64,000 bases of DNA from Candidatus Lloydbacteria bacterium RIFCSPHIGHO2_02_FULL_50_18 (lineage in GTDB: Bacteria; Patescibacteriota; Minisyncoccia; Phycocordibacterales; UBA6899): contig MHLM01000006.1 in the NCBI GenBank assembly GCA_001821395.1, forward strand, positions 1 to 64,000, in the 5' to 3' direction. The position numbers and the translations under genes were made by a program. This document shows, piece by piece, positions 373 to 29,806 of this stretch (positions within the stretch are counted from its first letter, which is position 1; each line of letters opens with the position of its first letter). Below the pieces are notes generated by a model that was not told the DNA's origin, ran no database searches, and saw only the letters and a program-made list of their open reading frames with translations.

Positions 373-418
373 CTTTGCGATTTATTCAGCATGAGAATGC
401 TTCACAAATAACGCAAAG
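373..418. repeat. Conserved hairpin motif, copy A: core TTTATTCAGCATGAGAATGCTTCACAAATA enclosed by the CTTTGCG/CGCAAAG stem
   Basis: Core is 30/32 identical to 29727..29756; the outer stem sequence differs but stays complementary (covariation). Confidence 0.6.
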
Positions 419-475
419 CTCTTCGATTCCCTATCGCAAGCAAAGCAGTTTGCTTGCTTAGTCACCCCTCAACGA

Positions 476-505
476 AAAAACTCCCGGGAGGGAGTCTTTT
501 CTTAT
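476..505. terminator. Bidirectional rho-independent terminator-like hairpin (A-run, CTCCC-GGGA-GGGAG, T-run)
   Basis: aaaaaactcccgggagggagtcttttctt. Confidence 0.5.
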
Positions 506-797
506 TCGGGGTGCCAATCCAGTTGTGAACCATACCCGCGAGACGGTTGAGAGGTTTCTTGACCGATATCTCGAGATCGCACTAATGCAATGCGGTCTGG
601 GTCTGATCGATACCTCTCTCCCTTCTACTCCCTCTCTGACTCCCCCTCCTACCTCTGACGATTCTCGACCCCAGTGAGACACCACAAGGGTTTCTTGTGT
701 TTCGCGAATAGTTCGACAATTCAGGAGCCCTGCTCCTCGGTCGTGAACCAATTATGTAGGGTGAGGAGGCAGTTTATCAATTTTAATCACACACAAT

Positions 798-1457
798 ATG
801 CAACTCTCTGAAGAGTCGGTTGATGAATTTAAGGAAATTTACAAGAAAAAGTACGGCAAAGAATTGGGTGATGCCGAGGCGCATGAATCCGCGAGAAAGC
901 TTGCGGGGTTCTTCGAGCTACTCTACAAGTGCGCACAGGAAGACAGCGCGAAGAAGCGTCGACTGAAAAAAGAGCCTGGAGGGTTCCCCACTGACGGGAA
1001 TCGCAACTGTCTTGTCTGTCATGCAATGATCACATCAGAAAATGGTTGGTACGATAAGTACGGTCAGAAATGTCTCAACTGCCAGCGCGCACTCAACACG
1101 GGTGCTGTTCCAACTTATGTCTTTATTAACCACGATAGTTTCTTCCTCCCTTGGCAGCTCAAGAGTAAGTTCGATCTCCCGCATGCAACTATGCGCAAAT
1201 TATTGCGACAGGGAAAATTAACAGCGAGAGTTATCACCACCGAGAATGGAGGTGTTCACGAATACATTCTTCTCAAAAAAGAAAATCCTGCGCTTGTTGC
1301 TCTTGAGAAATGGAATCCGATGCGAAAGTCATATGATCGACATCGGGATAAGGTGCACCGACGAGAAATGCGTGAGGAACTAAAAAAATTAAAGGCGGGA
1401 CTCTACGCTGAACACGCGAAGTGGAAAAAGAAGATCGAGAAACTGCGTACACGTTGA
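798..1457 (+). CDS. Hypothetical protein with a CxxC..CxxC zinc-ribbon and a basic C-terminus
   Basis: 219-aa ORF with NCLVCH..CLNCQ; no recognisable family. Confidence 0.5.
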   Translation: MQLSEESVDEFKEIYKKKYGKELGDAEAHESARKLAGFFELLYKCAQEDSAKKRRLKKEPGGFPTDGNRNCLVCHAMITSENGWYDKYGQKCLNCQRALNTGAVPTYVFINHDSFFLPWQLKSKFDLPHATMRKLLRQGKLTARVITTENGGVHEYILLKKENPALVALEKWNPMRKSYDRHRDKVHRREMREELKKLKAGLYAEHAKWKKKIEKLRTR

Positions 1458-1491
1458 TTGCGTACGCAGTCTCAAATCCTTCGAGTTGCAA

Positions 1492-1701
1492 TTACCCGAA
1501 ACGGTGCTCGACCTCTAATACAAGAGAGGGGTCTTTTCGATGATCCGCGATTTCGGCAACAACTTTCAATACATGCTCCTTGGTCAGATTGCCGATTTTC
1601 GCGTCTGCGACCCACTGGGAAATGTATCCACGAAATGCGGCATCCGCGCTGACTTCCTCGATCCACTCTTTGCCCCAGATGATATTTGGATTAGTGCTCA
1701 T
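1492..1701 (-). CDS. Small hypothetical protein (69 aa)
   Basis: Protein-like composition; competing overlapping ORFs on both strands. Confidence 0.25.
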   Translation of the reverse strand: MSTNPNIIWGKEWIEEVSADAAFRGYISQWVADAKIGNLTKEHVLKVVAEIADHRKDPSLVLEVEHRFG

Positions 1702-1837
1702 GTTCTTATCGATTAACTAATAATATCCTTATTTTACAAGAGTACATTTCGATCACGGGGGGATAGATTTCGGTGCGATTCCTCCGGGGACTGCTCCTCG
1801 GTCGTGAACTAAAATAGTACGACCCTCGAGGACATTG

Positions 1838-2347
1838 CTACTGCGTCACCGCATCACTCCCATGGTCACTCACTTGTGCATCAAACCACGCATGGATAGC
1901 ACTAAGTGTTTCGGTGTCTGTAGTCTCAAAATCGATCTTTGCTCCGTTCTCAATCTCACTGTAGGTTACCTTCATCTTTGTATAATTTGTTTTCAAAACG
2001 GATATACCTGCCATGCTCTCTCCGTGTAACCCCGTTGGGTCGGAAAAATTACCCTGCGCAAAGTTCTGCGCTTCCATCTGTAAGTGCATACGTATGAGCG
2101 AGAGATCTTGTGTGTCTCCCGGGTCACGCACAACGACACTCTGTGTTCCCCCGTTTTCGGTCTTCTTAAAGATATGCTGCGTCTTATCAAGACTGAACGG
2201 CATCACATTCTGACCTTTTTCATGGATCATTTGCTGGCGTGATGCGGGTTGTCTATTCCCAAGGAGAACATAAGACACGGCAACTACTACAATAACCGAT
2301 ACGGCTCCAATGATGATTTTGTGTGTGTTTTGAATTTGCATGCTCAC
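1838..2347 (-). CDS. Membrane-anchored hypothetical protein (N-terminal TM helix)
   Basis: 169 aa with an N-terminal hydrophobic helix; overlaps the downstream SHOCT gene by 4 bp (operon). Confidence 0.5.
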   Translation of the reverse strand: MSMQIQNTHKIIIGAVSVIVVVAVSYVLLGNRQPASRQQMIHEKGQNVMPFSLDKTQHIFKKTENGGTQSVVVRDPGDTQDLSLIRMHLQMEAQNFAQGNFSDPTGLHGESMAGISVLKTNYTKMKVTYSEIENGAKIDFETTDTETLSAIHAWFDAQVSDHGSDAVTQ

Positions 2348-2589
2348 TGGAGATCTTTCTTTTTTTCCTCAAACTCCTTCTGGTCTATCTCCCCTTTGGC
2401 ATACCGCTCTTTCAAAATATCAAGCGGAGATTTTTCGTGAGCATCACCACCATGGTTGTGTCCACATGCATGACCACCACCAAAACCTGATCTCACCAAG
2501 GAGACGATGCCCCAGATGACGAGGCCCCAAAAGATAATCATAAAGATCGGACCAAAACCGCCCATATATCCGTATCCAAAATCCATCAT
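2344..2589 (-). CDS. SHOCT-domain membrane protein
   Basis: N-terminal TM segment, Gly/His-rich linker, C-terminal LKERYAKGEIDQKEFEEKKKDL (SHOCT signature). Confidence 0.7.
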   Translation of the reverse strand: MMDFGYGYMGGFGPIFMIIFWGLVIWGIVSLVRSGFGGGHACGHNHGGDAHEKSPLDILKERYAKGEIDQKEFEEKKKDLQ

Positions 2590-2626
2590 ATGTTTGTGAA
2601 TTAATTATTAATAGTCGCAGGAATGA

Positions 2627-2956
2627 TCAAAACGTGACGACTTTATCCGAAGTCTCGATCATCTTGAGTAAGTCAGTCATCGTGGAAATGGGGCAGACTC
2701 CGCTCTCTTCTTTATTGCGAAGCTTCAGACACGTACCGCAAGCAAAGATCTCGCCCTTCAGTTCCTTAAACTCCGCTACCTTTACCGAGATGTCGAAATG
2801 TTCAGAATCTGCAATCGTATCGAGCTCGGATCCCTCGCTCATTAAAAAAACTTCCGCCTGATTGCCCGCTTTGAGCGCGGTGATTCCAAGGCGGAATGCA
2901 TTCCACGCATGTTCAGGGTTATTCGATTGCAAGATGATGCCGAGTTTCATTTTCAA
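2627..2956 (-). CDS. DsrE/DsrF (YchN)-like sulfur-relay family protein
   Basis: 109 aa; MKLGIILQS..; Cys-containing DsrE-like fold pattern. Confidence 0.55.
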   Translation of the reverse strand: MKMKLGIILQSNNPEHAWNAFRLGITALKAGNQAEVFLMSEGSELDTIADSEHFDISVKVAEFKELKGEIFACGTCLKLRNKEESGVCPISTMTDLLKMIETSDKVVTF

Positions 2957-3139
2957 ATTGTATCATAAATTAGCAGTGCGTGATTCCTTGGAGGTAATCC
3001 TTCAGGGAGTCGAACCAGATGTTACAAATGTTACACCCAAAGCCCCATTTTGGAGGCAATCTGAGCGAGCGTTTTTAAAAACGAAACGGCTATAAATATA
3101 GGTATTTGACGAAAAAAAGGGTTGATATAATGAGGGTAT

Positions 3140-3766: not shown

Positions 3767-3811
3767 GGAGGGTTTTTCCCAAGTCGAGAAAATAAGGGTG
3801 AAACACTGAAT

Positions 3812-5888: not shown

Positions 5889-6246
5889 TGCCCAAAAGGA
5901 AAAGGTTATCGAGTTCCTTGCTGAATCCGGCAACATCAGCTTCGCATGCAAGCGAGGGGGTATCAGTCGCGAGACATACTACCGATGGAGGGACGATGCG
6001 AGGTTTGCGGCAAAGGCTGACAGTGCCATTCAGTCGGGCAAGACCTTCGTGAACGACCTTGCCCACACCCAGCTCATCCGCAAGATCCAAGAGGGTGACA
6101 TGCAAGCGATACGCTTCCATCTCGTGAACTGCCATGACGACTATCGCCCGAAGCTGCCCGAGCGCATCGAGCGCGTGGTGCCGATCACTGCGGTGGAGAT
6201 CATTCAGGCGAGCCATGACTGCAAGAAAGAGGTTAACGCCGAGTAG
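5848..6246 (+). CDS. Phage terminase small subunit-like HTH protein (P27 family-like)
   Basis: GNISFACKRGGISRETYYRWRDDARF..AIRFHLVN pattern typical of TerS-type HTH proteins; no large terminase nearby. Confidence 0.55.
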   Translation: MASKHPTVLEKRIDAQKEKVIEFLAESGNISFACKRGGISRETYYRWRDDARFAAKADSAIQSGKTFVNDLAHTQLIRKIQEGDMQAIRFHLVNCHDDYRPKLPERIERVVPITAVEIIQASHDCKKEVNAE

Positions 6247-6982: not shown

Positions 6983-7014
6983 ATATTGCTCTAGCGGGTT
7001 GGCAAATATGCTCG

Positions 7015-7868: not shown

Positions 7869-9023
7869 TTAATCAACCAGTTGGTAAAAACAGTTAGTTA
7901 ATTGGCGAATTAATTCTGGATAAATAGCGTCAAACGAGGAACCTTCTGGAATACCCAGCCGCTGACATACTGATACTAAGGCTTCAAATTTTTTCTCGTC
8001 ACTTACGGCATGGAGAAGATTTACCCGAAGATCGTACAGAACAAATAATGGGGAAACTATTTTGTGGACGTCCTTTTTAGGAAACTTCAGGCTAAACAGT
8101 AGTTCAATCCTCTTTAGTCCACCCAAATTTTTGGGGTCACCACCCAGCTTAATTATGATTGCCCCAAGATTGCTGACATCCAAAGATTCAATATTTATCT
8201 TATTCAAAAGATCCACGATATCCTTTTGCTCCTTTTCCGTATGAAGGACCGGTGGATTAAGTTTGGAGATGGATTGAATGGTCTCGTTTGTTAAATGACT
8301 CACCTCAAGTCCAAACTCTTTTGTACAAAACTCTAGGAATACAGACCGAGCATTAATTAACTTATCTTCAGGTGTATAGTCAGTAAATTTAACTTCAATC
8401 TGGCCATCATAGAACTCACTTCCAATGTCGTGGTCAGACTCAATATTTTCTGAACGCAGATAGTATTGCTCAGACTCATCTAGCGTGGCCATGTCACCAA
8501 GCCACATTATTACTTTTCCAGACTTGTTTACACCAAAAGATATATCGAAATCCTTTCCGCTGTAAATACTCCCATAGGTTTTTGAAGCAAATCGCACTCT
8601 ATAATCGGAATGGTTCTGGAATTTGAGCAGCACAGATTTTTTAAAAAATACAGGAGTTAAAAACCCAGAATTGTGATCTCTTTGCAGTCCAGGTATATAA
8701 TAGTAATCATCCGCATCATAAATAAATTTAACTTTTGTAAATCCAAGGTCCTCAACTATCTTCCTTCGATTACTGAAAATAGTATCCCGGTGTTCCTCAA
8801 GCGCCTTTTGGTGTAAATGAATGATCACAAATCTACTGTGATCAGGAAAATATTTTAAATCACATGATCCACAAAATAGATACGGTAGGGCTTGAATTGA
8901 TATATTTATTCCTGACACCAGTTCGTTGAAATCGAAATATTTCAAAACCATCGACTGTCCGCAATTTTCACAATATATACGCTGAACTTTTCCATCTTCG
9001 GGAAAGATATCCTTTATATCCAT
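7869..9023 (-). CDS. Uncharacterised zinc-ribbon protein that is the last gene of the type I RM operon
   Basis: 384 aa; N-terminal CENCG..CGSCD; 3-bp gap after the hsdR stop; no Walker motif, so not PrrC-like. Confidence 0.55.
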   Translation of the reverse strand: MDIKDIFPEDGKVQRIYCENCGQSMVLKYFDFNELVSGINISIQALPYLFCGSCDLKYFPDHSRFVIIHLHQKALEEHRDTIFSNRRKIVEDLGFTKVKFIYDADDYYYIPGLQRDHNSGFLTPVFFKKSVLLKFQNHSDYRVRFASKTYGSIYSGKDFDISFGVNKSGKVIMWLGDMATLDESEQYYLRSENIESDHDIGSEFYDGQIEVKFTDYTPEDKLINARSVFLEFCTKEFGLEVSHLTNETIQSISKLNPPVLHTEKEQKDIVDLLNKINIESLDVSNLGAIIIKLGGDPKNLGGLKRIELLFSLKFPKKDVHKIVSPLFVLYDLRVNLLHAVSDEKKFEALVSVCQRLGIPEGSSFDAIYPELIRQLTNCFYQLVD

Positions 9024-16331: not shown

Positions 16332-16488
16332 ACGACAACCTTGCTTAGCATAATTATACCAAATTTATTGAGTTTTTGCTGCAATAAAAAGTGGATAAAA
16401 ATAGGGCTATTTGAGGGATGGTTACCAACAGCTTACCAACTGACCCTCCCTGGACTCCCTGGGAGGGTTGCGTCATCAATTGGTGTGT

Positions 16489-17844
16489 ATGAAAAATACA
16501 AACCCGCTAGAGGGCTCTGACGAGCCGAAAATTAAGTACTGTTTATACGCTAGAAAATCGAGCGAATCGGACGAGCAGCAAGCCCTTTCGATCGACTCCC
16601 AAGCCAAGGAGATGCTCCAGCTGGCGCAACGAGAGGGGCTTGATGTGGTCGACATCAAGCGCGAGTCGCACTCCGCAAAAAGCACCGGGCAACGCCCGGT
16701 CTTCAATGAGCTGATCAGCGACCTCAAGGAGGGCAAGTTTAATGCCATTCTCGCATGGCATCCGGATCGCTTAAGCAGAAATGCAGGCGACCTCGGTGCT
16801 ATCGTCGACCTGATGGACGAGCACCGACTTATCGAAGTGAGAACCTTTGGTCAAAAGTTTACAAATAGTCCAAGCGAGAAGTTTCTACTCATGATTCTAT
16901 GCTCGCAAGCAAAGCTTGAGAACGACAACAAGGGCGTGAACGTGAAGCGGGGGCTACGAGCAAAAGTTGAGATGGGACTATGGCCATGCGTTGCACCGAC
17001 CGGATACATCAACGACCGCATGCCTGGGCGTGCAGGATATGTGCTCGTCGACCCGGTGCGTGCTCCGATTATCAAGCAAATATTTGAAAAGGTCGGCAAT
17101 GACCGATGGAGCGCTAGGACGGTTTATAAATGGATGGTCAAAGAAGGAAAGTTCAATAGCGTGAGAAAAGGAAATAAGGCACTCACCCTGAGCACAATCT
17201 ATCGACTTCTGCATCAGCCTTTCTATTCGGGAACATTCGAGTACCCCACCGGGAGCGGTAACTGGTACAAAGGTCAACATGAGCCACTCGTTTCCAAGGA
17301 ACTCTTCGAGAAGGTGCAGCAAAAAATAGCGGAGGAGTTGAAGTCAAAGAAACAATATCAAGAATTCACCTTCACGAACCTTATGCTCTGCGGATACTGT
17401 GGGTCAGGTATTACCGCACAATCAAAAGACAAAAATCTCAAAGATGGGAGCGTCAAAAGTTACACCTACTACAACTGCACGCACAACAAGGATCACTTCT
17501 GCAAAAACCCGTTCATTCGCGAAGAAGAACTTCTCAAACAGATCGATGAGATCTTCGACAAGATCGATATCGACGAACTTGGAACACGGCATATCATTGA
17601 AAGAGAGGTTGCGCGATACAACAACATTCGGGCAAAACTCCTCGGCGCAAAAGAAAATGACAAAGCACTCGACGTCGACGTGCGAAACTATGCCAAGTAC
17701 ATGCTCAAAGAAGGCACGATGCTCGAAAAACGCGAACTCCTAGGGTGCCTAAAAAATAGAATTATTCTGAAGGATAAAACGATAACGCTTGAAAAAAGTT
17801 TGCAAATTAATGACTTAACGCCACAAACACAGATAGCACGCTGA
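16489..17844 (+). CDS. Large serine recombinase (resolvase domain, recombinase domain and zinc ribbon)
   Basis: YARKSSESDEQQALSIDSQ catalytic Ser region; C-terminal CGYCGS..YYNCTH; an alternative TTG start exists at 16468. Confidence 0.85.
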   Translation: MKNTNPLEGSDEPKIKYCLYARKSSESDEQQALSIDSQAKEMLQLAQREGLDVVDIKRESHSAKSTGQRPVFNELISDLKEGKFNAILAWHPDRLSRNAGDLGAIVDLMDEHRLIEVRTFGQKFTNSPSEKFLLMILCSQAKLENDNKGVNVKRGLRAKVEMGLWPCVAPTGYINDRMPGRAGYVLVDPVRAPIIKQIFEKVGNDRWSARTVYKWMVKEGKFNSVRKGNKALTLSTIYRLLHQPFYSGTFEYPTGSGNWYKGQHEPLVSKELFEKVQQKIAEELKSKKQYQEFTFTNLMLCGYCGSGITAQSKDKNLKDGSVKSYTYYNCTHNKDHFCKNPFIREEELLKQIDEIFDKIDIDELGTRHIIEREVARYNNIRAKLLGAKENDKALDVDVRNYAKYMLKEGTMLEKRELLGCLKNRIILKDKTITLEKSLQINDLTPQTQIAR

Positions 17845-18172
17845 GGATGACGAGTATCTTCACCCCACCTCCATACACAATCCAAGTAAATAATTTTTTT
17901 GCAGCAAGCATAACTATTCCGAGCACCAGAATGGAAACTCCAACGCCCGTGAGTGGGTCGTGCAATCCTTTCATAGGAGCATGAGTCCAAACAAAAAATA
18001 TACCTACGACAACCATAAGCCGCGCAATTATGTTAAACCAGCTTATGGAATCTTCGTGGCCAAAAGGAGCACCTCCTATGCCAACTTTCTTAGCAAAGAA
18101 GACACGAGTTACTGCTCCGGCAACACTTGCGATAACACGAATTACTAACTGTTGGAAAAAACTCCCATCCAT
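17807..18172 (-). CDS. Small four-TM membrane protein, last gene of the Ubl/E1 operon (candidate effector)
   Basis: 121 aa with four hydrophobic helices; 1-nt gap after the JAB-E1 stop; convergent 38-nt overlap with the recombinase 3' end. Confidence 0.5.
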   Translation of the reverse strand: MDGSFFQQLVIRVIASVAGAVTRVFFAKKVGIGGAPFGHEDSISWFNIIARLMVVVGIFFVWTHAPMKGLHDPLTGVGVSILVLGIVMLAAKKLFTWIVYGGGVKILVILSVLSVFVALSH

Positions 18173-18173
18173 A

Positions 18174-19565
18174 CTATTTTAAGTTCTCATCAAAAACTTG
18201 ATAACTATCATCATTTGAGTCTCCTTTTCCGGTAAATTCTGAGAATGGGCAATTTGGCAAGCAGTCTTCACCGAGTTTTCTTTCCAGCTCCCCGGTAACA
18301 AAATGGTATAGATTTTCACCGTGATGACTTATGCCGTTGGGTTTTACTACAAGTGCCAACATCTGTAGCACCATCATTGAGGCGAGGTGCATGCTAAAAG
18401 CAAAAACGTTTTGATTGTTCAAGTGATGGCGCAAACCGTCAACGGTGTTTATGTACTCCGAATCATCCAGCAGACCTTTGCGTTCAAGAGACACTTCAGC
18501 AAAGGTGTACTGCCCAATGCACGAGAGACATTTATTACCCGGGGTTGCAGTGTGCGCACGCCAATCCGCTGAGCGCAACAAATCCTCCTTGGTGTGCACT
18601 CGAATACCACCATCAACGACTGGAATCAGGTGTGTATAAGCAATGTAATTAAGAACGTGGCGCGCCCACGGCCTATCAACGCAACTGAACAGGAGGTCAC
18701 AATTTAGTGCACCTCGGTATCCCTCAGCTCCAGTTACATGAACTGGTAATCGTGTGACGAAAAAGTTGTCGGCAGTTGCGTGTTCAATAAGTCTTTTTGC
18801 AATTACATCCGTCTTCAATTCACCAACATCTTTTATCGTCGCATGCATAAGTCGATCGAGGTTGTGTTTCTTTACTACGTCAAAATCGATAAGCGAAATA
18901 TGCTGAACTCCAGTTCTAGCAAGTGCCTCAGCAATAGCACTTCCGACACTTCCCGTGCCGACTATTCCTATGTGTAAACGAGATAATTCGTCTTGCTTAT
19001 CTTGACCCCATGAAGAAATTGTACGTTTCAGTTCTTCTCTAAAACCCTGCGGCTTAAGCAGCGCGTCACAATAGGTGATAGAAAGGCCCATTTGACCTAT
19101 AGTGCGAACACTCTCGCACCATGATGGAGCATATTCCCGAACCCCGGTTCTATTCCAAAAACGAGCACTCCACGCACCATCTGTGCCTATAGTTAGTCCA
19201 AGGAGGGGTCGTTCTGTTATTCCAAAGGTTGCCGCAGCGTGCGATAACTCCGCCCGAACATCGGTCCTGCTCATATTCTGCCATCCAGGAAACGGGTGGC
19301 TATGCATAAAAGCAAGGCCCATATCTCGGGCGGATGCTATTTGTAGTGCTCTCTGAAAATACTCGGGAGAAAAACTCGCGTTGCCATGCACTTCCCGCTC
19401 TCCGTCTTCAGGAAGAATCGGTTCAACCAAGAGTGCTGTCAGTCTTTCTCCTCCGCTGCTCGGCTGCCACAAAGCAAAACATAAGTCTTCCTGCCCATCC
19501 TTACGCACAAGATGAGAAAAGAGTTTCTGGTTTACCTCGGTTGTCATCGCTACGCTGTATCTCAT
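18174..19565 (-). CDS. JAB/MPN (JAMM) metalloprotease fused to an E1-like ThiF/MoeB adenylyltransferase
   Basis: N-terminal HSHPFPGWQNMSRTD (HxH..SxxD JAMM motif); then GIVGTGSVGS..IDFDVVKKHNLDRL E1 Rossmann motifs; C-terminal CxxC pairs. Confidence 0.8.
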   Translation of the reverse strand: MRYSVAMTTEVNQKLFSHLVRKDGQEDLCFALWQPSSGGERLTALLVEPILPEDGEREVHGNASFSPEYFQRALQIASARDMGLAFMHSHPFPGWQNMSRTDVRAELSHAAATFGITERPLLGLTIGTDGAWSARFWNRTGVREYAPSWCESVRTIGQMGLSITYCDALLKPQGFREELKRTISSWGQDKQDELSRLHIGIVGTGSVGSAIAEALARTGVQHISLIDFDVVKKHNLDRLMHATIKDVGELKTDVIAKRLIEHATADNFFVTRLPVHVTGAEGYRGALNCDLLFSCVDRPWARHVLNYIAYTHLIPVVDGGIRVHTKEDLLRSADWRAHTATPGNKCLSCIGQYTFAEVSLERKGLLDDSEYINTVDGLRHHLNNQNVFAFSMHLASMMVLQMLALVVKPNGISHHGENLYHFVTGELERKLGEDCLPNCPFSEFTGKGDSNDDSYQVFDENLK

Positions 19566-19924
19566 AGTGTGTTGAGGAGTTTTATAACGTGAGCAAGGTA
19601 AACATCGACGTTACGTTTACTACTTTCCCAGCTCGGGTGCGGCCTACTAAGATGCATCCACTCAGGGCCAAAATCACTGTCGTGAATTCGATCACGATGC
19701 TCCTGTGATGAGGTGTTGGTGGGCAACGTACGCGGATGAATATGTGGGCCGTGGGGAGCAGTCAGCTCAAAGTCTCCTGGGACATCTACCCCAACGCGAA
19801 CTGTCTTGCCTGCAAGAGTTCCTTCGTTGACAGACAGCGCAAATGCCAGCCGATTGCCTTCAAGGTTTTCAACCTCAAAACCAAGATTCTTGAGACCTTG
19901 AATAAATTTTTCTTTGCCGCTCAT
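19562..19924 (-). CDS. E2/UEV-like protein lacking a catalytic Cys
   Basis: 120 aa, beta-rich, then PHGPHIHP (HPN-like) and two W.P-like motifs; no cysteine; 4-bp overlap with the E1 gene. Confidence 0.4.
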   Translation of the reverse strand: MSGKEKFIQGLKNLGFEVENLEGNRLAFALSVNEGTLAGKTVRVGVDVPGDFELTAPHGPHIHPRTLPTNTSSQEHRDRIHDSDFGPEWMHLSRPHPSWESSKRNVDVYLAHVIKLLNTL

Positions 19925-21271: not shown

Positions 21272-21302
21272 CGACCTATCAGGTCTAGAACCTTTAATGC
21301 CA

Positions 21303-21359
21303 AAAAGCGACCCTTCTGGGTCGCCTCTTGGGTCTCTGCGTCGGGGGTGCCTATAGGGA
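21303..21359. repeat. Putative attR: the partner of the 57-bp direct repeat, overlapping the tRNA-His 3' end and its terminator hairpin
   Basis: See 290..346; the GCGACCC-TTCT-GGGTCGC hairpin serves as the tRNA terminator. Confidence 0.75.
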
Positions 21360-21418
21360 ATCGAACCCTAGCTAAAGGCTCCACAAGCCTCTGTGCTAAC
21401 CGCTACACCATAGGCACC
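21346..21418 (-). tRNA. tRNA-His (GTG) with an encoded G-1
   Basis: Acceptor GTGCCTA/TAGGCAC, anticodon loop TTGTGGA, T-loop GGTTCGATTCC, extra 5' G pairing with discriminator C. Confidence 0.85.
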
Positions 21419-23911: not shown

Positions 23912-23999
23912 AACGATACTCCCGCAGTTATGCTGCGGGAGCTTTTTATACAAAAAACCCGCCCATATCATAGGCGGGTTGTAGAACCCAAACAAGAAA

Positions 24000-25559
24000 T
24001 TATTCGTCGTCATCCATTTTCGGTGCCAGACACTTTCGTGTCTCAACAACCTTTCCATCTTCTGCGACGCTTTCGATCTGCACACCGAAGCCCCAAAGGC
24101 GAGCGACATGTCGCAACACCTCATCCGTATCGTCATTCAACGGACGATTATTGGAACGTGTGTGACGCAGCGTCAGCGACCGATCCCCTCGCACATCAAC
24201 ATTCCATACTTGAATGTTCGGCTCCCGGTTTCCCAGGTTGTATTGATTCGAGAGCACCTCACGAACACGTCGATAGCCGGCATCATCATGGATCGCCGTC
24301 ACCACGTATTCTTCCTCATTCTCATCATCAAGGAGCGCGAAGAGATGAAAATCGCGGATGAGTTTCGGACTTAAGAACTGACCGATGAAACTCTCATCTT
24401 TGTAGTTGTGCATTGCATCGTGCAATACTGGCAACCAGTCCTTTCCCGCAATGTCCGGGAACCACTGCCGATCTTCATCGGTCGGCTCCTCACAGATACG
24501 CTTGATATCGGTATACATTGCGAAACCGAGCGCATAGGGATTGAACCCGTTGTAATACCTACTTGAGACCGGCGGCTGGTAGACCACATTGGTATGCGAC
24601 TTCAGGAACTCGATCATGAGTCCGTCGGACAGATACCCGTCATCGAACATCGTGTTCAATATCTTGTGATGCCAAAATGTTGCCCACCCCTCGTTCATCA
24701 CCTGCGTTTGGCGCTGCGGGTAAAAGTATTGCGCGATCTTTCGCACGATGCGCACGATCTCTCTTTCCCACGTCTGCAGATGCGGAGCCCGCTTTTCAAT
24801 GAAGTAGAGCAGGTTTTCCTCAGGCTCTTCCGGAAAACGTTTTTTCAAAGATTCCTTTGACGCGCTACCCGGTTTCGTTGGAACCGTGCTCCAGAGCTCA
24901 TTGACCTGCTGCTGCGCATATTCCGCATGCTCCGCTCTGCGTACCAACTCCTGTGCCAAACTCAATTTTTCCGGATGACGATAGCGGTCTACCCCGTAGT
25001 TCATGAGTGCATGGCAGGAATCGAGCACTTCTTCAACGCGTTCATACCCGTGTCTTTCCTCGCATGCTGCGATGTAATTCTTCGCGTACACGAGGTAGTC
25101 AAGGATGCTTCCCGCGTCAGTCCACATGCGGAACAAATAGTTGCCCTTAAAGAAACTGTTATGCCCATATGCTGCGTGTGCAATCACCAGCGCCTGCATC
25201 CCCATGGTATTTTCTTCCATGAGATAACTGATGCATGGACTCGAGTTGATCACGATCTCATAGGCGAGCCCCATTTCCCCGCGATGATAGCGTTGCTCAT
25301 TGGAGATGAACTCCTTCCCAAAGCTCCAATGCCGGTAATTGATCGGCATCCCGACAGACGCATATGCGTCCATCATCTGCTCGGCAGTGATGATCTCAAG
25401 CTGATTCGGATACGTATCAAGACCGAAGCGCTCTGCCGTGTCTCTGATCACCCGATGATATTGTTCGATCAGCGGAAATGACCATTCACCCGGCGACGGA
25501 AGTCGCTCGTGGGGTCGCTCTCCCGCAGGTAGCGGGATGCGTGGTATGACCTTGCTCAT
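24000..25559 (-). CDS. spoVR: SpoVR/YcgB family protein
   Basis: 519 aa; conserved N-terminal block; third gene of the prkA-yeaH-spoVR arrangement. Confidence 0.8.
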   Translation of the reverse strand: MSKVIPRIPLPAGERPHERLPSPGEWSFPLIEQYHRVIRDTAERFGLDTYPNQLEIITAEQMMDAYASVGMPINYRHWSFGKEFISNEQRYHRGEMGLAYEIVINSSPCISYLMEENTMGMQALVIAHAAYGHNSFFKGNYLFRMWTDAGSILDYLVYAKNYIAACEERHGYERVEEVLDSCHALMNYGVDRYRHPEKLSLAQELVRRAEHAEYAQQQVNELWSTVPTKPGSASKESLKKRFPEEPEENLLYFIEKRAPHLQTWEREIVRIVRKIAQYFYPQRQTQVMNEGWATFWHHKILNTMFDDGYLSDGLMIEFLKSHTNVVYQPPVSSRYYNGFNPYALGFAMYTDIKRICEEPTDEDRQWFPDIAGKDWLPVLHDAMHNYKDESFIGQFLSPKLIRDFHLFALLDDENEEEYVVTAIHDDAGYRRVREVLSNQYNLGNREPNIQVWNVDVRGDRSLTLRHTRSNNRPLNDDTDEVLRHVARLWGFGVQIESVAEDGKVVETRKCLAPKMDDDE

Positions 25560-26938
25560 GCTTTTCGCTCCTTTTGAAATAATCCACGGAATACGGGATA
25601 GATCTCACTCACTGCTTTCACCTTGCGGATAGCAAAGGACTTGTTTCTCTCGGCCAACTTTGCATATTCGCGCCAGAGGTTTTGCTCCTCTTCGACGACT
25701 TGAATATAGGCAAAGTAGCGGCACAAAGGCAACAATCTTGCCTCAAGCAGGTCGGAACAGGTCCCACTATCGTTCCCCCAATTATCACCGTCGCTTGCCT
25801 GCGCGCCGTAGATATTCCATTCACCTGACGGATAGCGTTCACGAATGATCTGCTCCATAAGCAAGAGCGCACTCGAAACGATGGTACCGCCGGTCTCCCT
25901 GGAGTGGAAGAATTCTTCTTCCGTCACTTCCTGTGCTTCAGTGTGATGCCGGATGAACACGATGTCGATCTTTTCATAATGCCGCGTCAAAAAGAGATAC
26001 AGCAGAATAAAGAAGCGTTTAGACAAGTCTTTACGCAGCTCATCCATCGAACCCGAAATATCCATGAGGCAGAACATGACCGCCTTTGAATACGGCATCG
26101 GCACACGCATACGAGCGCGATACTTCAGATCGATCGGATCAAGATAGGGAATGACCCGCATCTTCGATACGATCGCTGCAATGCGATTTGCGATGCTCTC
26201 GTGAGATTCAACCTCTGGATCGTGTCCGATCTTTGTCTCAAGCACACCGATCTCTTCAGTGAGCTTTTGATGCGCTTCGTCGTAACCGGCCGGACACATA
26301 TGACAGACCGACTCAAGCTGATCAAGCTCCTCAAGCAACTCCAGCAACTTTTTGCGGTCGTTCTTGTGGAATGCGATCCCGCGCCCGATCGAATTACGCA
26401 TCGAATGCACAATGGACAGATTATTCGGTGTCCCATCGTTCGTAAATCCCGATCGCACGCTCTTATATTCGGGCGTATCAGCAAGTGTCGTTTTGATCAG
26501 ATTCGGCAACGCGAGGTCGTCGAAAAAGATATTCATGAACTCTTCCTTGGTCAGATGGAAAACAAAATCGTCTTCCCCCTCACCCGAATCGCTCGCACTG
26601 CCTCCACTTCCCTGTCCGCCCCGTGGCCGCTCGATACGGTCACCGGTAACGTATTCTTCGTTACCCGGATGAACACCTTCGCGCGAACCACCCGGCCCAT
26701 GACCGAATACCGGCTCACGGAGGTCACGCTTCGGAATGCGCACGTCCTCGCCGCCATCTCCCACATCTCGGATCCCGCGACCTTCGATCGCGCGCTTTAC
26801 CGCCTCACGCACCTGCTCGCTCTGGCGACGCAGAAAACGTTGGCGATTACCAATAGACTTACCTTTGCCCGCCAAACGACGGTCGATCGGCGGGGGTAGT
26901 GTCCCGGAATCAACTCGCGTTATTTCATGATCACTCAT
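25556..26938 (-). CDS. yeaH: YeaH/YhbH (DUF444, vWA-like) protein
   Basis: 460 aa; operon partner between prkA and spoVR; 4-bp overlap. Confidence 0.75.
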   Translation of the reverse strand: MSDHEITRVDSGTLPPPIDRRLAGKGKSIGNRQRFLRRQSEQVREAVKRAIEGRGIRDVGDGGEDVRIPKRDLREPVFGHGPGGSREGVHPGNEEYVTGDRIERPRGGQGSGGSASDSGEGEDDFVFHLTKEEFMNIFFDDLALPNLIKTTLADTPEYKSVRSGFTNDGTPNNLSIVHSMRNSIGRGIAFHKNDRKKLLELLEELDQLESVCHMCPAGYDEAHQKLTEEIGVLETKIGHDPEVESHESIANRIAAIVSKMRVIPYLDPIDLKYRARMRVPMPYSKAVMFCLMDISGSMDELRKDLSKRFFILLYLFLTRHYEKIDIVFIRHHTEAQEVTEEEFFHSRETGGTIVSSALLLMEQIIRERYPSGEWNIYGAQASDGDNWGNDSGTCSDLLEARLLPLCRYFAYIQVVEEEQNLWREYAKLAERNKSFAIRKVKAVSEIYPVFRGLFQKERKA

Positions 26939-27013
26939 TTGCGTCTCCTAAAGAAAACAGGGTGCGTCTGGCGCACCCTGTAAGGTTTAAATCACAATTG
27001 TCGCACGGTTCTC

Positions 27014-29005
27014 TTATGAGGATTTCCGCACGCGCATATACCACTCACAAAGCAAACGCACCTGTTTCGGTGTGTAGCCTTTTCCGACCATCCGCGTCAC
27101 GAAATTCTCGTGCTTTTCCGCATCATTGGCACTTGCCTTGGGATTGAACGAAATGACCGGAAGCAGCTCTTCAGTATTCGAGAACATCTTCTTCTCGATC
27201 ACCGTCCGCAGCTTCTCGTAGCTCGTCCACACGGGATTCTTCCCTCCATTACTGGCTCGCGCACGAAGCACGAAATTCACGATCTCATTCCGGAAATCCT
27301 TCGGATTGGAAATCCCCGCAGGTTTCTCGATCTTCTCGAGGTCGCTGTTGAGCGCGGCACGATTAAAGGTTTCCCCCGTATCGACGTCGCGATATTCCGT
27401 ATCTTGGATCCAATAGTCGGCATAGTTCACGTAACGGTCAAAAATATTCTGACCATACTCGCTGTAACTCTCAAGATACGCCGTCTGAATTTCCTTCCCG
27501 ATGAACTCCGCATACTTGGTCGCCAATTGCTCTTTGATGAACGCATGGTATTTGTCGGACTGCTCCTTCGGAAGCTGTTCACGATCGATCTGCTGTTCCA
27601 ATACATACATGAGATGCACCGGATTTGCCGCGATTTCAGACGAGTCGAAGTTGAACACTTTCGACAGGATCTTGAACGCAAAACGCGTCGAGATACCCGT
27701 CATGCCTTCGTCGACTCCGGCGTAGTCACGATACTCCCCGTAGCTCTTCGCCTTCGGGTCAGTGTCTTTCAGGCTTTCACCGTCATACACCAACATCTTG
27801 GAAAAGAGATTCGAGTTTTCCGGATCTTTGAGCCGCGTGAGCGTAGCGAACTGCGCCATCATCTTGAACGTCCCCGGAGCACATTTGGCTTCCGAGAGCG
27901 ATGAGTTGCGAATCAATTTCTCGTAGATCTTGATCTCTTCGCTGACGCGGAGACAGTAGGGAACCTTCACGATATAGATACGGTCAAGGAACGCTTCATT
28001 GTTCTTATTGCCGCGGAATGTCTTCCATTCGCTTTCGTTCGAGTGAGCGAGCACGATACCGTCGAACGGGATCGCACCGAAACCCTCAGTACCCTTGTAA
28101 TTGCCTTCCTGCGTTGCCGTAAGAAGCGGATGGAGCACCTTAATGGGCGCCTTGAACATCTCGACGAATTCGAGCAGGCCCTGATTGGCCAAACACAGAC
28201 CTCCCGAGAAGCTATATGCATCAGGGTCGTCCTGCGAAAGATGCTCGATTTTTCGAATATCGGTCTTCCCAACCAAGGACGAAATGTCCTGATTGTTTTC
28301 ATCACCCGGCTCTGTCTTTGCGATAGCGATCTGCCGCAAAATGTTCGGGTAACGTTTCACGACCCTGAATTTGCTGATATCACCGTCGAATTCTTCGGAG
28401 GCGAGGCGTTTGACCGCCCATGGTGACAACACACGATTCAAATACCGTCGTGGAATGTTATATTCCTTTTCAAGCATCTCCGCGTCTTCGAGTGCATCGA
28501 ACAATCCGAGCGGTGATTCGTTCACCGGTGAACCTTCGATAGCGAAGAAGGGTACGTCCTGCATGAGCAGTTTCAGCCGTTCCGCGATAGACGATTTGCC
28601 GCCGCCAACGGGGCCAAGCAAATAGAGGATCTGTTTCTTTTCTTCCAGCCCCTGGGCAGAATGACGGAAGTAGGCGACCACTTGTTCAATGGCATCTTCC
28701 ATACCGTAAAATTCTTCAAAGGCCGGATAGACCTTGATGGTCTTATTCGCAAACAGCCGAGACAAGCGCGGATTAGTCCGCGTGTCGATCATCTGAGGTT
28801 CGCCGATCGCCTTCAGCATCCGCTCGGAAGCGGTTGCATAGGCCATTGGATTCCGTTTGCATTCTTCAAGGTACTCCTCAAGCGACATCGATTCTGAACG
28901 CAAGCGTTCATGACGTTTTGTTGCCTGAAGAGAAAAATGACTATTTCCCATGACTATCTCCTTATTTACCGGTGAATGATAAGCGAAGTGTGGTTGCGCA
29001 CCCAC
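27014..29005 (-). CDS. prkA: PrkA/YeaG serine protein kinase (AAA-type)
   Basis: 663 aa; Walker A LLGPVGGGKSS; family length. Confidence 0.85.
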   Translation of the reverse strand: MGAQPHFAYHSPVNKEIVMGNSHFSLQATKRHERLRSESMSLEEYLEECKRNPMAYATASERMLKAIGEPQMIDTRTNPRLSRLFANKTIKVYPAFEEFYGMEDAIEQVVAYFRHSAQGLEEKKQILYLLGPVGGGKSSIAERLKLLMQDVPFFAIEGSPVNESPLGLFDALEDAEMLEKEYNIPRRYLNRVLSPWAVKRLASEEFDGDISKFRVVKRYPNILRQIAIAKTEPGDENNQDISSLVGKTDIRKIEHLSQDDPDAYSFSGGLCLANQGLLEFVEMFKAPIKVLHPLLTATQEGNYKGTEGFGAIPFDGIVLAHSNESEWKTFRGNKNNEAFLDRIYIVKVPYCLRVSEEIKIYEKLIRNSSLSEAKCAPGTFKMMAQFATLTRLKDPENSNLFSKMLVYDGESLKDTDPKAKSYGEYRDYAGVDEGMTGISTRFAFKILSKVFNFDSSEIAANPVHLMYVLEQQIDREQLPKEQSDKYHAFIKEQLATKYAEFIGKEIQTAYLESYSEYGQNIFDRYVNYADYWIQDTEYRDVDTGETFNRAALNSDLEKIEKPAGISNPKDFRNEIVNFVLRARASNGGKNPVWTSYEKLRTVIEKKMFSNTEELLPVISFNPKASANDAEKHENFVTRMVGKGYTPKQVRLLCEWYMRVRKSS

Positions 29006-29321
29006 ATGATTCCTCGCCGCAGAATGTCAAAGAACGATATTGTTCTTACCCTTTTTCAGACTAACATCGTACTCAACGTCGTAAAGATTGATATATTGTC
29101 AAATATGTTGCGCAACTGAAGCATGGGTGAACAGCGAGGACAACAGCGACTCTTCCGTGGGTAAAGCTTGGATTTCTCTCGACCTGTCTGCTAGACTAGC
29201 CAGATCAAGCACTGAGCGGAAGTACCCCTTGAGATAACTTGGCATTCGTCCTTGTGAATGAGAAAATATCCAAAAGATGTGCGGCTCCATGGGAGTTTCG
29301 AGAGAGTTTTGTGCATTGTGT

Positions 29322-29403
29322 GGGCGTGTGGCGGAATTGGTATACGCGTACGTCTCAGAAGCGTATCCCGTAAGGGTTGGGAGTTCGAGTCTCCCCACGC
29401 CCA
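29322..29403 (+). tRNA. tRNA-Leu (CAG), type II
   Basis: Acceptor GGGCGTG/CACGCCC, anticodon loop CTCAGAA, long variable arm, T-loop GGGAGTTCGAGTCTCCC. Confidence 0.85.
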
Positions 29404-29709
29404 CAGAGTGCAAAAAGAGTCTCCCCAAGTTCACAAATACTCAGTCAGCCAAAGCGGGCGATTTTTGTTTGTAGCGAAACGTCCACTCACGCAAGCCAAG
29501 CAATTAAATAGGGAGGATGCTTGGTCACAGATAATTTTCTCGTCGTCATTCGAAAATTTCTGCGACCCCGACTCGCTGCGGTTTCTGCTGAAACCGCATT
29601 CGCTCCGTCTTTCAAATCCCCTTAAAAAAAGAAGATTTGAATCTTACAGATTCGGTACACCTTTCACCACGAAGAGTACTTCATTTTTCTAAGGCGGAGT
29701 ACCGCTAAG

Positions 29710-29806
29710 AAAAATTGGTCGGTGATTTATTCAGCATAAGAATGCTTCATAAATATCACAAAGCTTTTCAAATCCTCTCTCGCGACTGAAGCAGCGACCA
29801 ATTTTT
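29710..29806. repeat. Conserved hairpin motif, copy B (core 29727..29756) inside an outer 12-bp inverted repeat AAAAATTGGTCG/CGACCAATTTTT, with an inverted 16-nt tRNA-Leu 3' fragment at 29767..29782
   Basis: Core 30/32 identical to 380..411; inner stem GTGAT/ATCAC covaries with copy A's CTTTGCG/CGCAAAG. Confidence 0.6.

Follow-up and report, generated by a model that had tools for sequence, protein, structure and literature searches.

Folded non-coding elements that mirror the 3′ ends of neighbouring tRNA genes in Candidatus Lloydbacteria

Two copies of a conserved hairpin lie near tRNA genes in a 64,000-nucleotide stretch of contig MHLM01000006.1 (hereafter, the window), which raises the question of what larger feature they belong to. 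The original prediction described a shared core followed by an inverted tRNA 3′ fragment. The core is real: the window has exactly two occurrences of the 30-nt sequence TTTATTCAGCATRAGAATGCTTCAYAAATA, at 381–410 and 29726–29755, both on the plus strand, and shuffled sequences gave 0 matches. As predicted, similarity continues past the hairpin, upstream through CTTACAG..GTACACCTTT and downstream through CGC.A...AAGCAG. The inverted fragments also match their tRNAs (TTCGATTCCCTAT at 422–434 for tRNA-His; the 16-nt TTCAAATCCTCTCTCG at 29767–29782 for tRNA-Leu(GAG)), but each is an integral arm of a larger structure and not a separate scar. The two hairpins, named copies A and B, each form the central stem-loop (P3) of an element ~110–190 nt long, and these elements belong to a hitherto uncatalogued family of small, strongly folded non-coding DNA at tRNA genes. 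A covariance-model search of the window yields five members, at tRNA-His, Leu(GAG), Val, Arg(GCG) and Lys, three of which (C, D and the weak E) had been overlooked; seven related genomes contain at least 11 more. The element matched no Rfam family, even with an E-value threshold of 10, and the family had no match in phage and plasmid collections.

Read antiparallel to the tRNA, an element consists of six parts. It begins with the reverse complement of the last 13–20 nt of the tRNA, which on the tRNA strand is a direct repeat that starts in the T-loop (positions 56–60). Hairpin P2, with TAC in its loop, the junction CAGTAC and the long hairpin P3 follow. The fifth part mirrors the T-loop, T-stem 3′ strand, acceptor 3′ strand, discriminator and trailer, interrupted where the T-stem meets the acceptor strand by hairpin P4 (loop GCAG), whose position is constant across copies. 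The sixth is a bidirectional terminator common to the element and the convergent tRNA. The direct and mirrored tRNA copies (parts 1 and 5) pair as P1, and one strand therefore folds into a forked hairpin of ~140 nt, the stem of which replicates the 3′-end duplex of the tRNA gene. The conserved unpaired bases are TAC, CAGTAC, RAGA and GCAG. Element A and its surroundings are as follows.

261–329, minus strand: copy of the tRNA-His trailer and terminator, the distal part of an 86-nt direct repeat with 21274–21342 (85% identity over 86 nt)
330–346, plus: P1 5′ strand, the reverse complement of the last 16–17 nt of tRNA-His and so a direct repeat of its 3′ end; pairs with 428–434 and 460–468 in the minimum-free-energy fold
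352–364, plus: hairpin P2 (CGGC TTACA GCCG), with a covarying stem and a loop in which TAC is conserved
373–418, plus: hairpin P3, the predicted copy A, recovered by core search, alignment and fold
422–434, plus: mirrored tRNA-His T-loop and T-stem 3′ strand, TTCGATTCCCTAT, identical at 13/13 nt; the P1 3′ strand starts here
436–457, plus: hairpin P4 (GCAAGCAAA GCAG TTTGCTTGC) at the T-stem/acceptor-strand junction; 7/9 pairs covary
460–468, plus: mirrored acceptor 3′ strand and discriminator base, AGTCACCCC, with one mismatch to the tRNA
475–506, either strand: bidirectional intrinsic terminator, a module (AAAAAACTCCC..GGGAGT TTTT) shared with copy L017D, the element at tRNA-Val in genome L017
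508–515, plus: GGGGTGCC, putatively what is left of a reverse-complemented tRNA-His 3′ end; the analogy is with B, C, D and copies in L017 and L023
21274–21359, minus: the 86-nt direct repeat again, in its tRNA-proximal copy, made up of 17 nt from the tRNA-His 3′ end, trailer and terminator
21343–21418, minus: tRNA-His(GTG), mirrored by A and now 21 kb from it

The same analogy makes GGGGTGCC the likely left junction of the 21-kb island, where the tRNA would begin if the island were absent. Lying just past the terminator of A, this remnant suggests that the island landed between tRNA-His and an older mini-element already in place.

At tRNA-Leu(GAG), element B is the newer of two elements in tandem.

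29545–29621, plus: older, truncated type 3 element (GCGACCCCGACTCGC, hairpin GCGGTTTC TGCT GAAACCGC, GCTCCGTC TTTCAAATCC), which aligns with the elements at tRNA-Leu(GAG) in L020 and L022
29631–29653, plus: degenerate P1 5′ strand (GAAGATTTGAA) and hairpin P2 (GAATC TTACA GATTC)
29661–29763, plus: hairpin P3, holding the predicted copy B (29722–29759), its 5′ strand split by an R57 repeat (29665–29721)
29767–29782, plus: mirrored T-loop, T-stem 3′ strand and start of the acceptor strand of tRNA-Leu(GAG), TTCAAATCCTCTCTCG, identical at 16/16 nt
29782–29859, plus: hairpin P4 (GCGACTGAA GCAG .. TTCAGTCGC) with a second, inverted R57 copy in its loop (29795–29850)
29861–29915, either strand: perfect palindrome with 27-nt arms (100% complementary), running from the mirrored acceptor end and trailer of B across the bidirectional terminator into the tRNA-Leu(GAG) trailer and 3′ end
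29908–29992, minus: tRNA-Leu(GAG), mirrored by B

The orthologue of B in L017 carries the same R57 insertion in P3. L020 and L022 have only a type 3 element at this tRNA; in the window the truncated type 3 copy lies outside B, which pushed it outward. The remaining members are all on the minus strand, beside tRNA genes on the plus strand.

44380–44548, minus: element C (covariance-model hit 44402–44548, 125 bits) at tRNA-Lys (44302–44375, plus), comprising direct repeat and 5′ strand (44531–44548), P2 (44512–44524), P3 with a variant apex (44456–44505), T part (44443–44453), P4 (44419–44440), degenerate acceptor (44405–44415) and terminator (44380–44404)
35156–35297, minus: element D (covariance-model hit 35160–35297, 39.9 bits, E 1e-9) at tRNA-Val (35082–35155, plus), comprising 5′ strand (35297–35278), P2 (35275–35264), P3 with the type 2 apex ATCTCGA AGAC TCGATAA (35258–35225), T part (35223–35213), P4 (35209–35190), acceptor (35188–35181) and terminator (35180–35156)
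40439–40564, minus: element E (19.2 bits, E 9e-4), a weak, degenerate type 3 copy abutting tRNA-Arg(GCG) (40369–40441, plus)

The claim that a secondary structure linked to tRNA 3′ ends is under selection is borne out by covariation and by tRNA linkage, although one of the comparisons behind it was not of homologous stems. CTTTGCG in A had been set against GTGAT in B; the homologous closing stem of B is CTTT/GTG with CACAAAG, split by the 57-nt insertion, and A and B therefore differ there by one compensated pair (C-G to T-A). In a MAFFT alignment of six copies, both sides change in 21 of 33 pairs, and 94% of alignment cells are paired, compared with 32–43% when partners are slid; none of 500 shuffles reached the observed values. 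P2, P3 and P4 each covary strongly, and minimum-free-energy folds reproduce P1 to P4. Among 346 pairs, 321 are Watson-Crick, five G.T and three A.C, with no strand bias. The wobble intermediates expected in RNA are almost absent, and the pairing is DNA-like. Fold z-scores range from −4.7 to −8.4, with both strands equally stable.

All 16 copies, from eight genomes, run antiparallel to a tRNA gene, and in 14 the distance to the tRNA 3′ end is 7–49 nt. The other two are further away because of inserted DNA, which is the 21-kb island in the case of A and 739 nt with an IS200-like fragment in that of L008. The core was always found at a tRNA gene and with complementary flanks, not dispersed among non-tRNA sites. 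Ten tRNA genes by anticodon (eight amino-acid specificities) are occupied, all with homologous P2–P4 modules, which must therefore have moved between loci. Occupancy varies by species, as with Leu(GAG) versus Leu(CAG), and Ser(TGA) is occupied in L022 and unoccupied in the window. Fourteen of the 16 copies sit in housekeeping surroundings (adjoining genes include uvrC/ddl, multicopper oxidase, L19/prkA, SpoU methylase and alanine dehydrogenase) free of any island or recombinase, which tells against an end module of one island family. Orthologous sites keep their elements in species whose L19 proteins are 79–91% identical, and the P3 apex is invariant over 20 nt across genomes whose other intergenic DNA cannot be aligned.

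The arms are specific to the tRNA that they adjoin. Compared with 33 tRNAs, the mirrored arm best matches its own neighbouring, or identical orthologous, tRNA in 13 of 15 copies, and the orthologues B and L017B each agree with their own species' tRNA-Leu(GAG) at four positions that differ between the tRNAs. The mirror takes in the trailer, which is absent from mature tRNA, and perfect palindromes cross the tRNA end, trailer and terminator over 27 nt at the B locus and 23 nt in a second case. The predicted marks of tRNA integration are also present, as tRNA-derived flanking repeats of the kind left by integration; in L021, a displaced old 3′ fragment of tRNA-Leu(CAG) is identical to the tRNA of L020.

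Our tentative reading, to which we give a little less than an even chance, is that these are DNA-level, non-autonomous integrative mini-elements, or their attachment modules, that colonise tRNA 3′ flanks in Candidatus Lloydbacteria and have an analogue in the folded attP of CTXphi. They would then act like miniature integrated elements, each mirroring the 3′ end of its own tRNA, and not like the end of a single island. A recombinase acting in trans would be offered a folded single strand or small circle that imitates the tRNA-gene target, with the near-universal T-loop sequence as recombination site. The element would bring a replacement tRNA 3′ end, trailer and terminator, and the original 3′ end would stay at the far side as the direct repeat. 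Newcomers would insert beside the tRNA and displace older copies outward, after which template switching in the hairpins could keep the arms perfectly complementary and matched to the adjoining tRNA. No recombinase lies inside or adjoining any mini-element, and the enzyme is therefore hypothetical; nor was an excised form, an empty-site polymorphism or a near-identical recent copy seen, and assemblies of the window's genome from different samples are 100% identical at these loci. Persistence at orthologous sites and the invariant P3 apex suit a conserved host function better than a parasite. The reading does not account for retargeting of the arms to a new tRNA species, and if a foreign 3′ end recombined within the T-loop, the tRNA would come out chimeric. 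The conserved unpaired bases and the terminator directly 3′ of the element fit an RNA gene equally well.

Such a gene, encoding a small structured RNA convergent with the tRNA, is the main alternative, which we consider unlikely but well worth weighing. P1 would mimic the cognate acceptor/T-arm minihelix, much as the tRNA-like domain of tmRNA or YrlA does, and the RNA might engage tRNA-processing enzymes or other tRNA-binding factors, or its 5′ strand might pair with the tRNA 3′ end. Covarying helices, conserved loops and junctions, the stable fold (z-scores down to −8.4) and retention at orthologous loci in streamlined genomes would all be expected. Every well-preserved copy is followed by an intrinsic terminator in the element orientation, and this holds for A and L008 too, where no convergent tRNA is present; P1 of L008 is perfectly paired yet no longer matches the nearby tRNA-Ser, which points to selection on the pairing itself. 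Sequence analysis cannot reliably separate single-stranded DNA from RNA structures (PMC5737381). The near-absence of G.U pairs (five of 346, against three A.C) without strand asymmetry nevertheless argues against RNA, as does an equal or better fold of the opposite strand. No sigma-70-like promoter was found upstream of A, B or C in the element orientation, and in B and L002 the P1 5′ strand is missing or degenerate while P2–P4 are intact. T-loop bases 56–60 are taken up in P1, and a true T-loop fold is therefore not expected. An RNA gene also sits poorly with the lack of Rfam matches, and leaves the mirrored trailers, direct repeats and displaced tandem copies unexplained.

The tRNA-derived layout could also be a passive by-product of replication, although this is improbable. 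Template switching at the tRNA terminator hairpin would yield a tandem inversion duplication, that is, a direct-inverted-direct triplication of the tRNA 3′ end, with arms homogenised by quasi-palindrome correction and no function. Inverted triplications are reported to arise by template switching at short inverted repeats (PMC11790251). The direct/inverted/direct order with junctions at hairpins, the third copy at A that even takes in trailer and terminator, the long perfect palindromes and the Watson-Crick-only pairs lacking wobble intermediates all agree with this origin. It does not account for homologous P2–P3–P4 at ten tRNA genes in several genomes, for the 20-nt invariant P3 apex amid unalignable intergenic DNA, or for the constant position of P4.

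The originally proposed end module of one island family, an arm-type or accessory recombination site marking present and former integration sites, is very unlikely. The 86-nt direct repeat does bound a 21-kb island that has A at its tRNA-distal end and encodes a large serine recombinase, and other copies are also flanked by direct repeats of tRNA ends, but 14 of 16 copies lack island or cargo, the GGGGTGCC remnant suggests that the island arrived beside an existing element, the recombinase gene is 3.4 kb and 16 kb from the island ends and belongs to a class that uses short sites without arms, and the tRNA-His islands of L017 and L022 have no such module within the DNA examined.

The integrative reading can be set beside several known systems. 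Like tRNA-like RNAs (the tRNA-like domain of tmRNA, YrlA, viral tRNA-like structures), the elements have an acceptor plus T-stem helix with TTCGAAT, but their 5′ strand is unbroken, the additional domains are placed within the T-loop and along the 3′ strand, a G.U signature and an Rfam match are both lacking, and the arms reproduce the adjoining tRNA together with its trailer. REP/REPIN sequences with their RAYTs are also short, non-coding nested palindromes, multicopy per genome and vertically inherited at orthologous sites; REPINs, however, are not tied to tRNA genes and have no target-derived arms, and the orientation of the present family follows the tRNA and not the direction of replication. 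The window also holds a RAYT-like Y1_Tnp gene (30738–31424), flanked by another palindrome, TGTCAAGGTTTAACCTTGACA.

Islands and phages integrated at tRNA genes (attL/attR), and their cis-mobilisable remnants, share the tRNA 3′-end direct repeat starting in the T-loop, the restored 3′ end and tandem accretion with the newest insert beside the tRNA. The family differs in its lack of an integrase, its size (~150 bp), the extra mirrored tRNA copy, the covarying hairpins and the recurrence of one core at many tRNA species in a single genome. Integron attC sites are likewise set by structure and not by sequence, with Watson-Crick covarying stems and a variable, possibly branched centre, and are found by structured-RNA search methods (PMC5737381). 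Unlike them, the elements have no R″/R′ core sequences (the T-loop GTTCGAA does not fit GTTRRRY), no cassette arrays and no IntI gene, and their arms copy the neighbouring tRNA. The attachment site of CTXphi, attP(+), is a 150-nt forked hairpin that arises in its single-stranded genome from two oppositely oriented, target-like sites ~90 bp apart (PMC3089051). The target of the present family would be tRNA gene 3′ ends and not dif, with a hypothetical single-stranded intermediate and recombinase; its members are non-coding and only 110–190 nt long, with conserved P2 and P3 in the spacer and P4 splitting one arm. In both the family and the attP(+) of CTXphi and other Xer-exploiting elements, opposed target copies ~75–95 nt apart pair in a single strand into a forked hairpin of ~140–150 nt, with a stem that imitates the duplex of the host target; neither encodes an integrase, and copies, once integrated, are stable and build up in tandem (PMC3089051).

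The 30-nt hairpin core occurs exactly twice in the window, at 381–410 and 29726–29755, both on the + strand, and shuffled sequences gave no matches. The inverted tRNA-like flanks that the original prediction placed downstream of each copy are genuine: TTCGATTCCCTAT (422–434) is an inverted match to tRNA-His (21343–21418, −), and TTCAAATCCTCTCTCG (29767–29782) matches tRNA-Leu(GAG) (29908–29992, −) over 16 nt. When both regions were aligned, the homology between element A (tRNA-His) and element B (tRNA-Leu(GAG)) exceeded that first described, with CTTACAG..GTACACCTTT common to both upstream and CGCNA...AAGCAG common to both downstream. B is interrupted by two copies of R57, a 56–57-nt repeat, at 29665–29721 (+) and 29795–29850 (−). 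A third window copy, C (44402–44548, −), lies beside tRNA-Lys and was spotted by eye, having been missed by the exact-core search because the apex of its long hairpin differs.

These elements belong to a family of folded, non-coding inserts of 110–190 bp, each mirroring the 3′-end of its own tRNA. Read in the direction antiparallel to the tRNA, an element has six parts, the fifth of which is split by an additional hairpin:

Part 1, 5′ strand: the reverse complement of the last 13–20 nt of the tRNA; on the tRNA strand, a direct repeat starting at T-loop positions 56–60.
Part 2, hairpin P2: a loop with a conserved TAC.
Part 3, junction: CAGTAC.
Part 4, long hairpin P3: an A/T-rich lower stem and the loop RAGA.
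Part 5, copies of the neighbouring tRNA: a TTCGAAT-type T-loop, T-stem 3′ strand, acceptor 3′ strand, discriminator and trailer.
Hairpin P4: splits part 5 at the junction of T-stem and acceptor strand; a 9-bp stem and the loop GCAG, ACAG or GTAG.
Part 6: a bidirectional terminator common to the element and the convergent tRNA.

Pairing of part 1 with part 5 forms helix P1, whose arms are spaced 75–95 nt apart in an entire unit of ~140 nt. Minimum-free-energy folds of A, C and two copies from other genomes (L009 and L023a) recovered P1 to P4. The central module is of three types, distributed over the window elements, including D (tRNA-Val) and E (tRNA-Arg(GCG)), and loci from other genomes (L numbers, with a suffix for the element):

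Type 1: the core of the original prediction.
Type 2: apex ATCTCGA AGAC TCGATAA; in D, L017D, L021a, L023a and L023R.
Type 3: GACCCCGRCTCGC followed by the hairpin GTTTCGNC TGCT GNCGAAAC; in E, three L022 copies, the Leu(GAG) copy of L020 and window positions 29545–29621.

Covariation was computed on a MAFFT alignment of six copies that was not fitted to any structure. Paired cells amounted to 94.4%, compared with 32–43% when the partners were slid, and both partners change in 21 of the 33 pairs; the observed values were not reached in any of 500 shuffles. The secondary structure is under selection. The covariation originally ascribed to the outer stems holds in this alignment, but not by the comparison first drawn, which set non-homologous positions against each other; the true closing stem of B is CTTT-GTG/CACAAAG, one compensated pair apart from that of A. 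Copy C by itself accounts for five compensated pairs in the P3 apex. The P3 outer stem of L009 has been rewritten from CCTTTGCG/CGCAAAGC to CCGTTCCG/CGGAATGG. The P1 helix of L008 is perfectly paired (12/12) despite several differences from the nearby tRNA-Ser, and P1 is therefore maintained for its own sake.

The exact-core scan of the genome collection, which covered one genome per species, returned nine loci, three of them real (L002, L008 and L009, all from uncultivated bacteria) and six due to chance. A covariance model built from six copies recovered D and, weakly, E in the window, and gave ten more hits in four syntenic loci obtained via L19/PrkA homologues; a proteobacterial locus (L018), reached via the PrkA relative P0006, was of no use. 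Copies lie beside the tRNAs for His, Leu(GAG), Leu(CAG), Val, Arg(TCT), Arg(GCG), Lys, Ala(TGC), Ser(GCT) and Ser(TGA). Each of the 16 tabulated copies is antiparallel to its tRNA, and 14 are within 7–49 nt of the 3′-end of that tRNA; the exceptions are A, with a 21-kb island between the element and tRNA-His, and L008, with 739 nt including an IS200-like fragment. Five of the seven tRNA transcription units in the window have a copy, Leu(CAG) and Ser(TGA) being without one. In the metagenome collection, the exact-core scan gave three matches, all by chance. The collection of viral contigs contained no match to the P3 core or the P4 pattern, and blastn against phage and plasmid collections found none. 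With Rfam 15, only tRNAs and a LOOT RNA reached the gathering score across the whole window; positions 300–520 gave just terminator-like noise at E ≤ 10, and L002, L008 and L009 had no match on the element at E ≤ 1. We found no description of such an element in the literature.

The mirrored arm follows the neighbouring tRNA closely. Its best match among 33 tRNAs was its own, or the identical orthologous, tRNA in 13 of 15 copies, and at all four positions where the tRNA-Leu(GAG) of the window differs from that of L017, B and its orthologue L017B both follow the tRNA of their own species. The mirror also reaches into the trailer (CAAATAC in the window, CAATAC and ATATTT in L017, AAATTA in L022, CAAGCG in L002). 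Mature tRNA lacks the trailer, and the copy must therefore have been made from DNA or, at most, from the primary transcript. Mirror and terminator together form perfect palindromes with arms of 27 nt and 23 nt. Three independent assemblies of the same genome from other samples (L014, L015 and L016) are 100% identical to the window, and their contigs end at 29904 and 29864, within the palindrome at B, and at 21322, within an 86-nt direct repeat. The palindrome and the direct repeat may break assemblies or mark population variants; the coincidence of perfect palindromes with contig ends in independent assemblies holds whether the elements act as DNA or as RNA.

Direct repeats of the tRNA 3′-end, 13–20 nt long, are present at A, C, D, L009, L021a, L022D, L023a and L023R, and the tRNA is intact. 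There is no integrase gene within the inserts, and their neighbours are housekeeping genes. The set of occupied tRNAs differs between species; position is conserved at Val (window, L017 and L022) and at Leu(GAG) (window, L017, L020 and L022). In L020 and L022, tRNA-Leu(GAG) has a type 3 element only. As candidate empty sites, L020 is without an element after tRNA-Val and tRNA-His, and at its Leu(GAG) the older type 3 is the sole element; the flanks of these sites are too diverged for exact junctions to be defined. In the window, a truncated type 3 element (29545–29621) lies outside B, which is therefore a later arrival, nearer the tRNA; the L017 sequence, read by eye, suggests the same arrangement. 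In L021 (10971–11000/11104–11260 region), a displaced tRNA-Leu(CAG) 3′ fragment, identical to the tRNA of L020, sits between the current tRNA and the element. The same locus has a P2–P3 module fused to the reverse complement of a 3′-truncated tRNA-Leu-like pseudogene, and the two sequences point to repeated rearrangement at tRNA-Leu(CAG). A and L017D share a terminator module despite their different tRNAs. Separately, the genuine tRNA-Lys is immediately preceded by two degenerate copies of its 5′-end (44152–44182 and 44227–44257), with a spacing of 75 nt.

Other repeats and genes occur in the same regions. R57 is a two-hairpin repeat (CACCACGRAGAGTACTTCATTTTTCTAAG..AAGAAAAATTGGTCG) inserted in the P3 stem and the P4 loop of B; the insertion in P3 is common to B and its L017 orthologue. 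Further sites are 44583–44700 (adjoining C), L008 1888–1945, and L017 ~2895–2940 and 8620–8680, the L008 and L017 copies being within ~100 nt of elements. R57 looks like a second family of small palindromic repeats that favours hairpins. Inverted repeats of 58 nt that contain TGTCAAGGTTTAACCTTGACA flank an IS200/RAYT-like Y1_Tnp gene (30738–31424; region 30666–31519), and the repeat recurs in a third copy at 50600–50654; synteny of the gene in L017 and L020 suggests a domesticated REP-associated transposase. In L008, the C-terminal fragment of an IS200-like transposase (~2520–2757, read by eye) lies between the element and tRNA-Ser, with an ORF for a LAGLIDADG endonuclease beyond that tRNA. 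ARAGORN predicted a permuted tmRNA (38328–38948, −) overlapping tRNA-Ser(TGA), probably a false positive because Rfam finds no tmRNA there. The prkA-DUF444-spoVR operon (24000–29005, −) encodes proteins 83–85% identical to those of Burkholderiales in a genome labelled Candidatus Lloydbacteria; its synteny in two other Lloydbacteria-like genomes indicates that it is probably an old horizontal transfer, not a binning error. A 99-nt repeat pair (57833–57931 and 57990–58088) is 74% identical, with copies 157 nt apart and each containing the palindrome GAGAAACCAACGGTTTCTC.

We tentatively favour the possibility that the elements are non-autonomous integrative elements acting at the DNA level, which, as folded single strands, would mimic the 3′ duplex of the tRNA gene. 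The steps of integration, the recombinase and the retargeting of the arms are what we infer. A doubtful further proposal sees the element as a non-coding replicator in its own right: a single-stranded, rod-shaped circle of ~150–190 nt, whose central helix would be a copy of the tRNA gene's 3′-end, and which would hijack a host recombinase for insertion at the T-loop and have its arms re-templated from the adjoining tRNA, making it a self-reprogramming attachment site.

The main alternative, which we consider unlikely, is an RNA that mimics a tRNA minihelix; on a par with the doubtful replicator proposal, the family may consist of minihelix RNAs, each specific to a tRNA and one for every tRNA gene, with a role in the maturation or quality control of the cognate tRNA. 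Terminator-like sites lie downstream of A and C, and no sigma-70-like promoter was found upstream of A, B or C in the element orientation. Across 12 copies, 321 of 346 pairs are Watson–Crick, 5 are G.T and 3 are A.C. In an RNA, one strand should be rich in G.U pairs and poor in A.C pairs; there is neither excess nor asymmetry, so the strand-specific signature of RNA is missing, and both strands fold equally well. A tRNA mimic like YrlA or the tRNA-like domain of tmRNA would stack its acceptor stem on a T-arm with a free T-loop; here the acceptor and T-arm helices both fall within P1, T-loop bases 56–60 pair with the 5′ strand, and the 3′ strand is split by P4. The arguments from pairing, folding and promoters are not decisive, because motifs of single-stranded DNA and RNA look alike to sequence analysis (PMC5737381). 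GC skew is uniformly negative over 1–56 kb, with A and B on the + strand and C, D and E on the − strand; since both orientations occur against a skew of single sign, it is the tRNA, not the replication fork, that determines orientation.

It is improbable that the elements are a functionless by-product of template switching, which would leave the shared modules and the invariant P3 apex unexplained. The island-end module of the original prediction is very improbable. The defence-type island (~516–21350) at tRNA-His is bounded by an 86-nt imperfect direct repeat (261–346 and 21274–21359). It encodes a type I restriction-modification system that has two hsdM genes, a pair of N6/N4 DNA methylases, a large serine recombinase (16468–17844), a ThiF/E1-like gene with small neighbouring ORFs (17807–19924), and an ImmA/HTH gene pair adjoining the tRNA. 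Just beyond the terminator of A is GGGGTGCC (508–515), at the spot where the reverse-complemented tRNA starts in every other copy, and the island therefore probably inserted between tRNA-His and a pre-existing mini-element; alternatively, A may belong to the island. PHROGs gave no match for the unannotated ORFs of the island, the ORF beside the L009 element or the Y1_Tnp ORF, the last of which is recognised by Pfam. The island also holds a LOOT RNA (RF03000; 7642–7771, −), scoring 71 bits (gathering score 46), immediately 3′ of a 384-aa ORF that lacks annotation (7869–9023).

Several known mechanisms were considered and rejected. Lagging-strand targeting of the IS200/IS605 kind is disfavoured by element orientation relative to GC skew. 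Mimicry restricted to tRNAs whose synthetases ignore the anticodon, as the first copies (His, Leu, Ala and Ser) would have it, is ruled out by the Val, Arg and Lys copies. The relevant base of a hammerhead-like CUGAUGA, read on the opposite strand, is variable. Neither a primer-binding site of the retroviral kind nor reverse transcription from mature tRNA fits the mirrored trailer and the lack of conservation of the CCA complement. Nor do the elements fit a guide RNA of the TnpB, IscB or IS110 bridge type: genes of these kinds do not adjoin them, and their arms pair with each other rather than with two target halves. The large serine recombinase is found at one locus only, far from the island ends, and was discarded as the responsible enzyme.

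If the DNA reading is true, these would be the smallest known integrative elements, with the first folded attachment site to mimic a tRNA gene rather than dif or attI. Single-strand recombination, so far represented by CTXphi and integrons, would extend to the commonest class of bacterial integration targets, and a view would open on mobile DNA in Candidate Phyla Radiation bacteria, about whose mobile elements little is known. If the elements instead act as RNA, a ~1 Mb genome would keep, next to most of its tRNA genes, a dedicated structured RNA that matches the tRNA concerned; this would indicate a layer of tRNA biology so far unknown. In both cases, Rfam lacks the family, which is now open to modelling.

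In a manner that we have not seen described, the family joins features of tRNA-targeting islands, folded attachment sites and REPIN-like palindromes. Its closest precedent is CTXphi, whose single-stranded genome has two oppositely oriented dif-like sites, ~90 bp apart, which form a 150-nt forked hairpin that serves as the attachment site for host recombinases (PMC3089051). Here, too, target-like sites in opposite orientation pair into a hairpin, with comparable arm spacing and unit length; unlike CTXphi, which uses dif and the host Xer recombinases, the element has a tRNA 3′-end as its target and a hypothetical recombinase. Integron attC sites have RYYYAAC/GTTRRRY core sites and occur in cassette arrays, whereas the P1 arms consist of tRNA sequence, their GTTCGAA departs from GTTRRRY, and the copies stand singly at tRNA genes. 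Unlike REP/REPIN sequences with their RAYT, the Y1_Tnp gene is flanked by a different palindrome, and every copy of the element is at a tRNA 3′-end.
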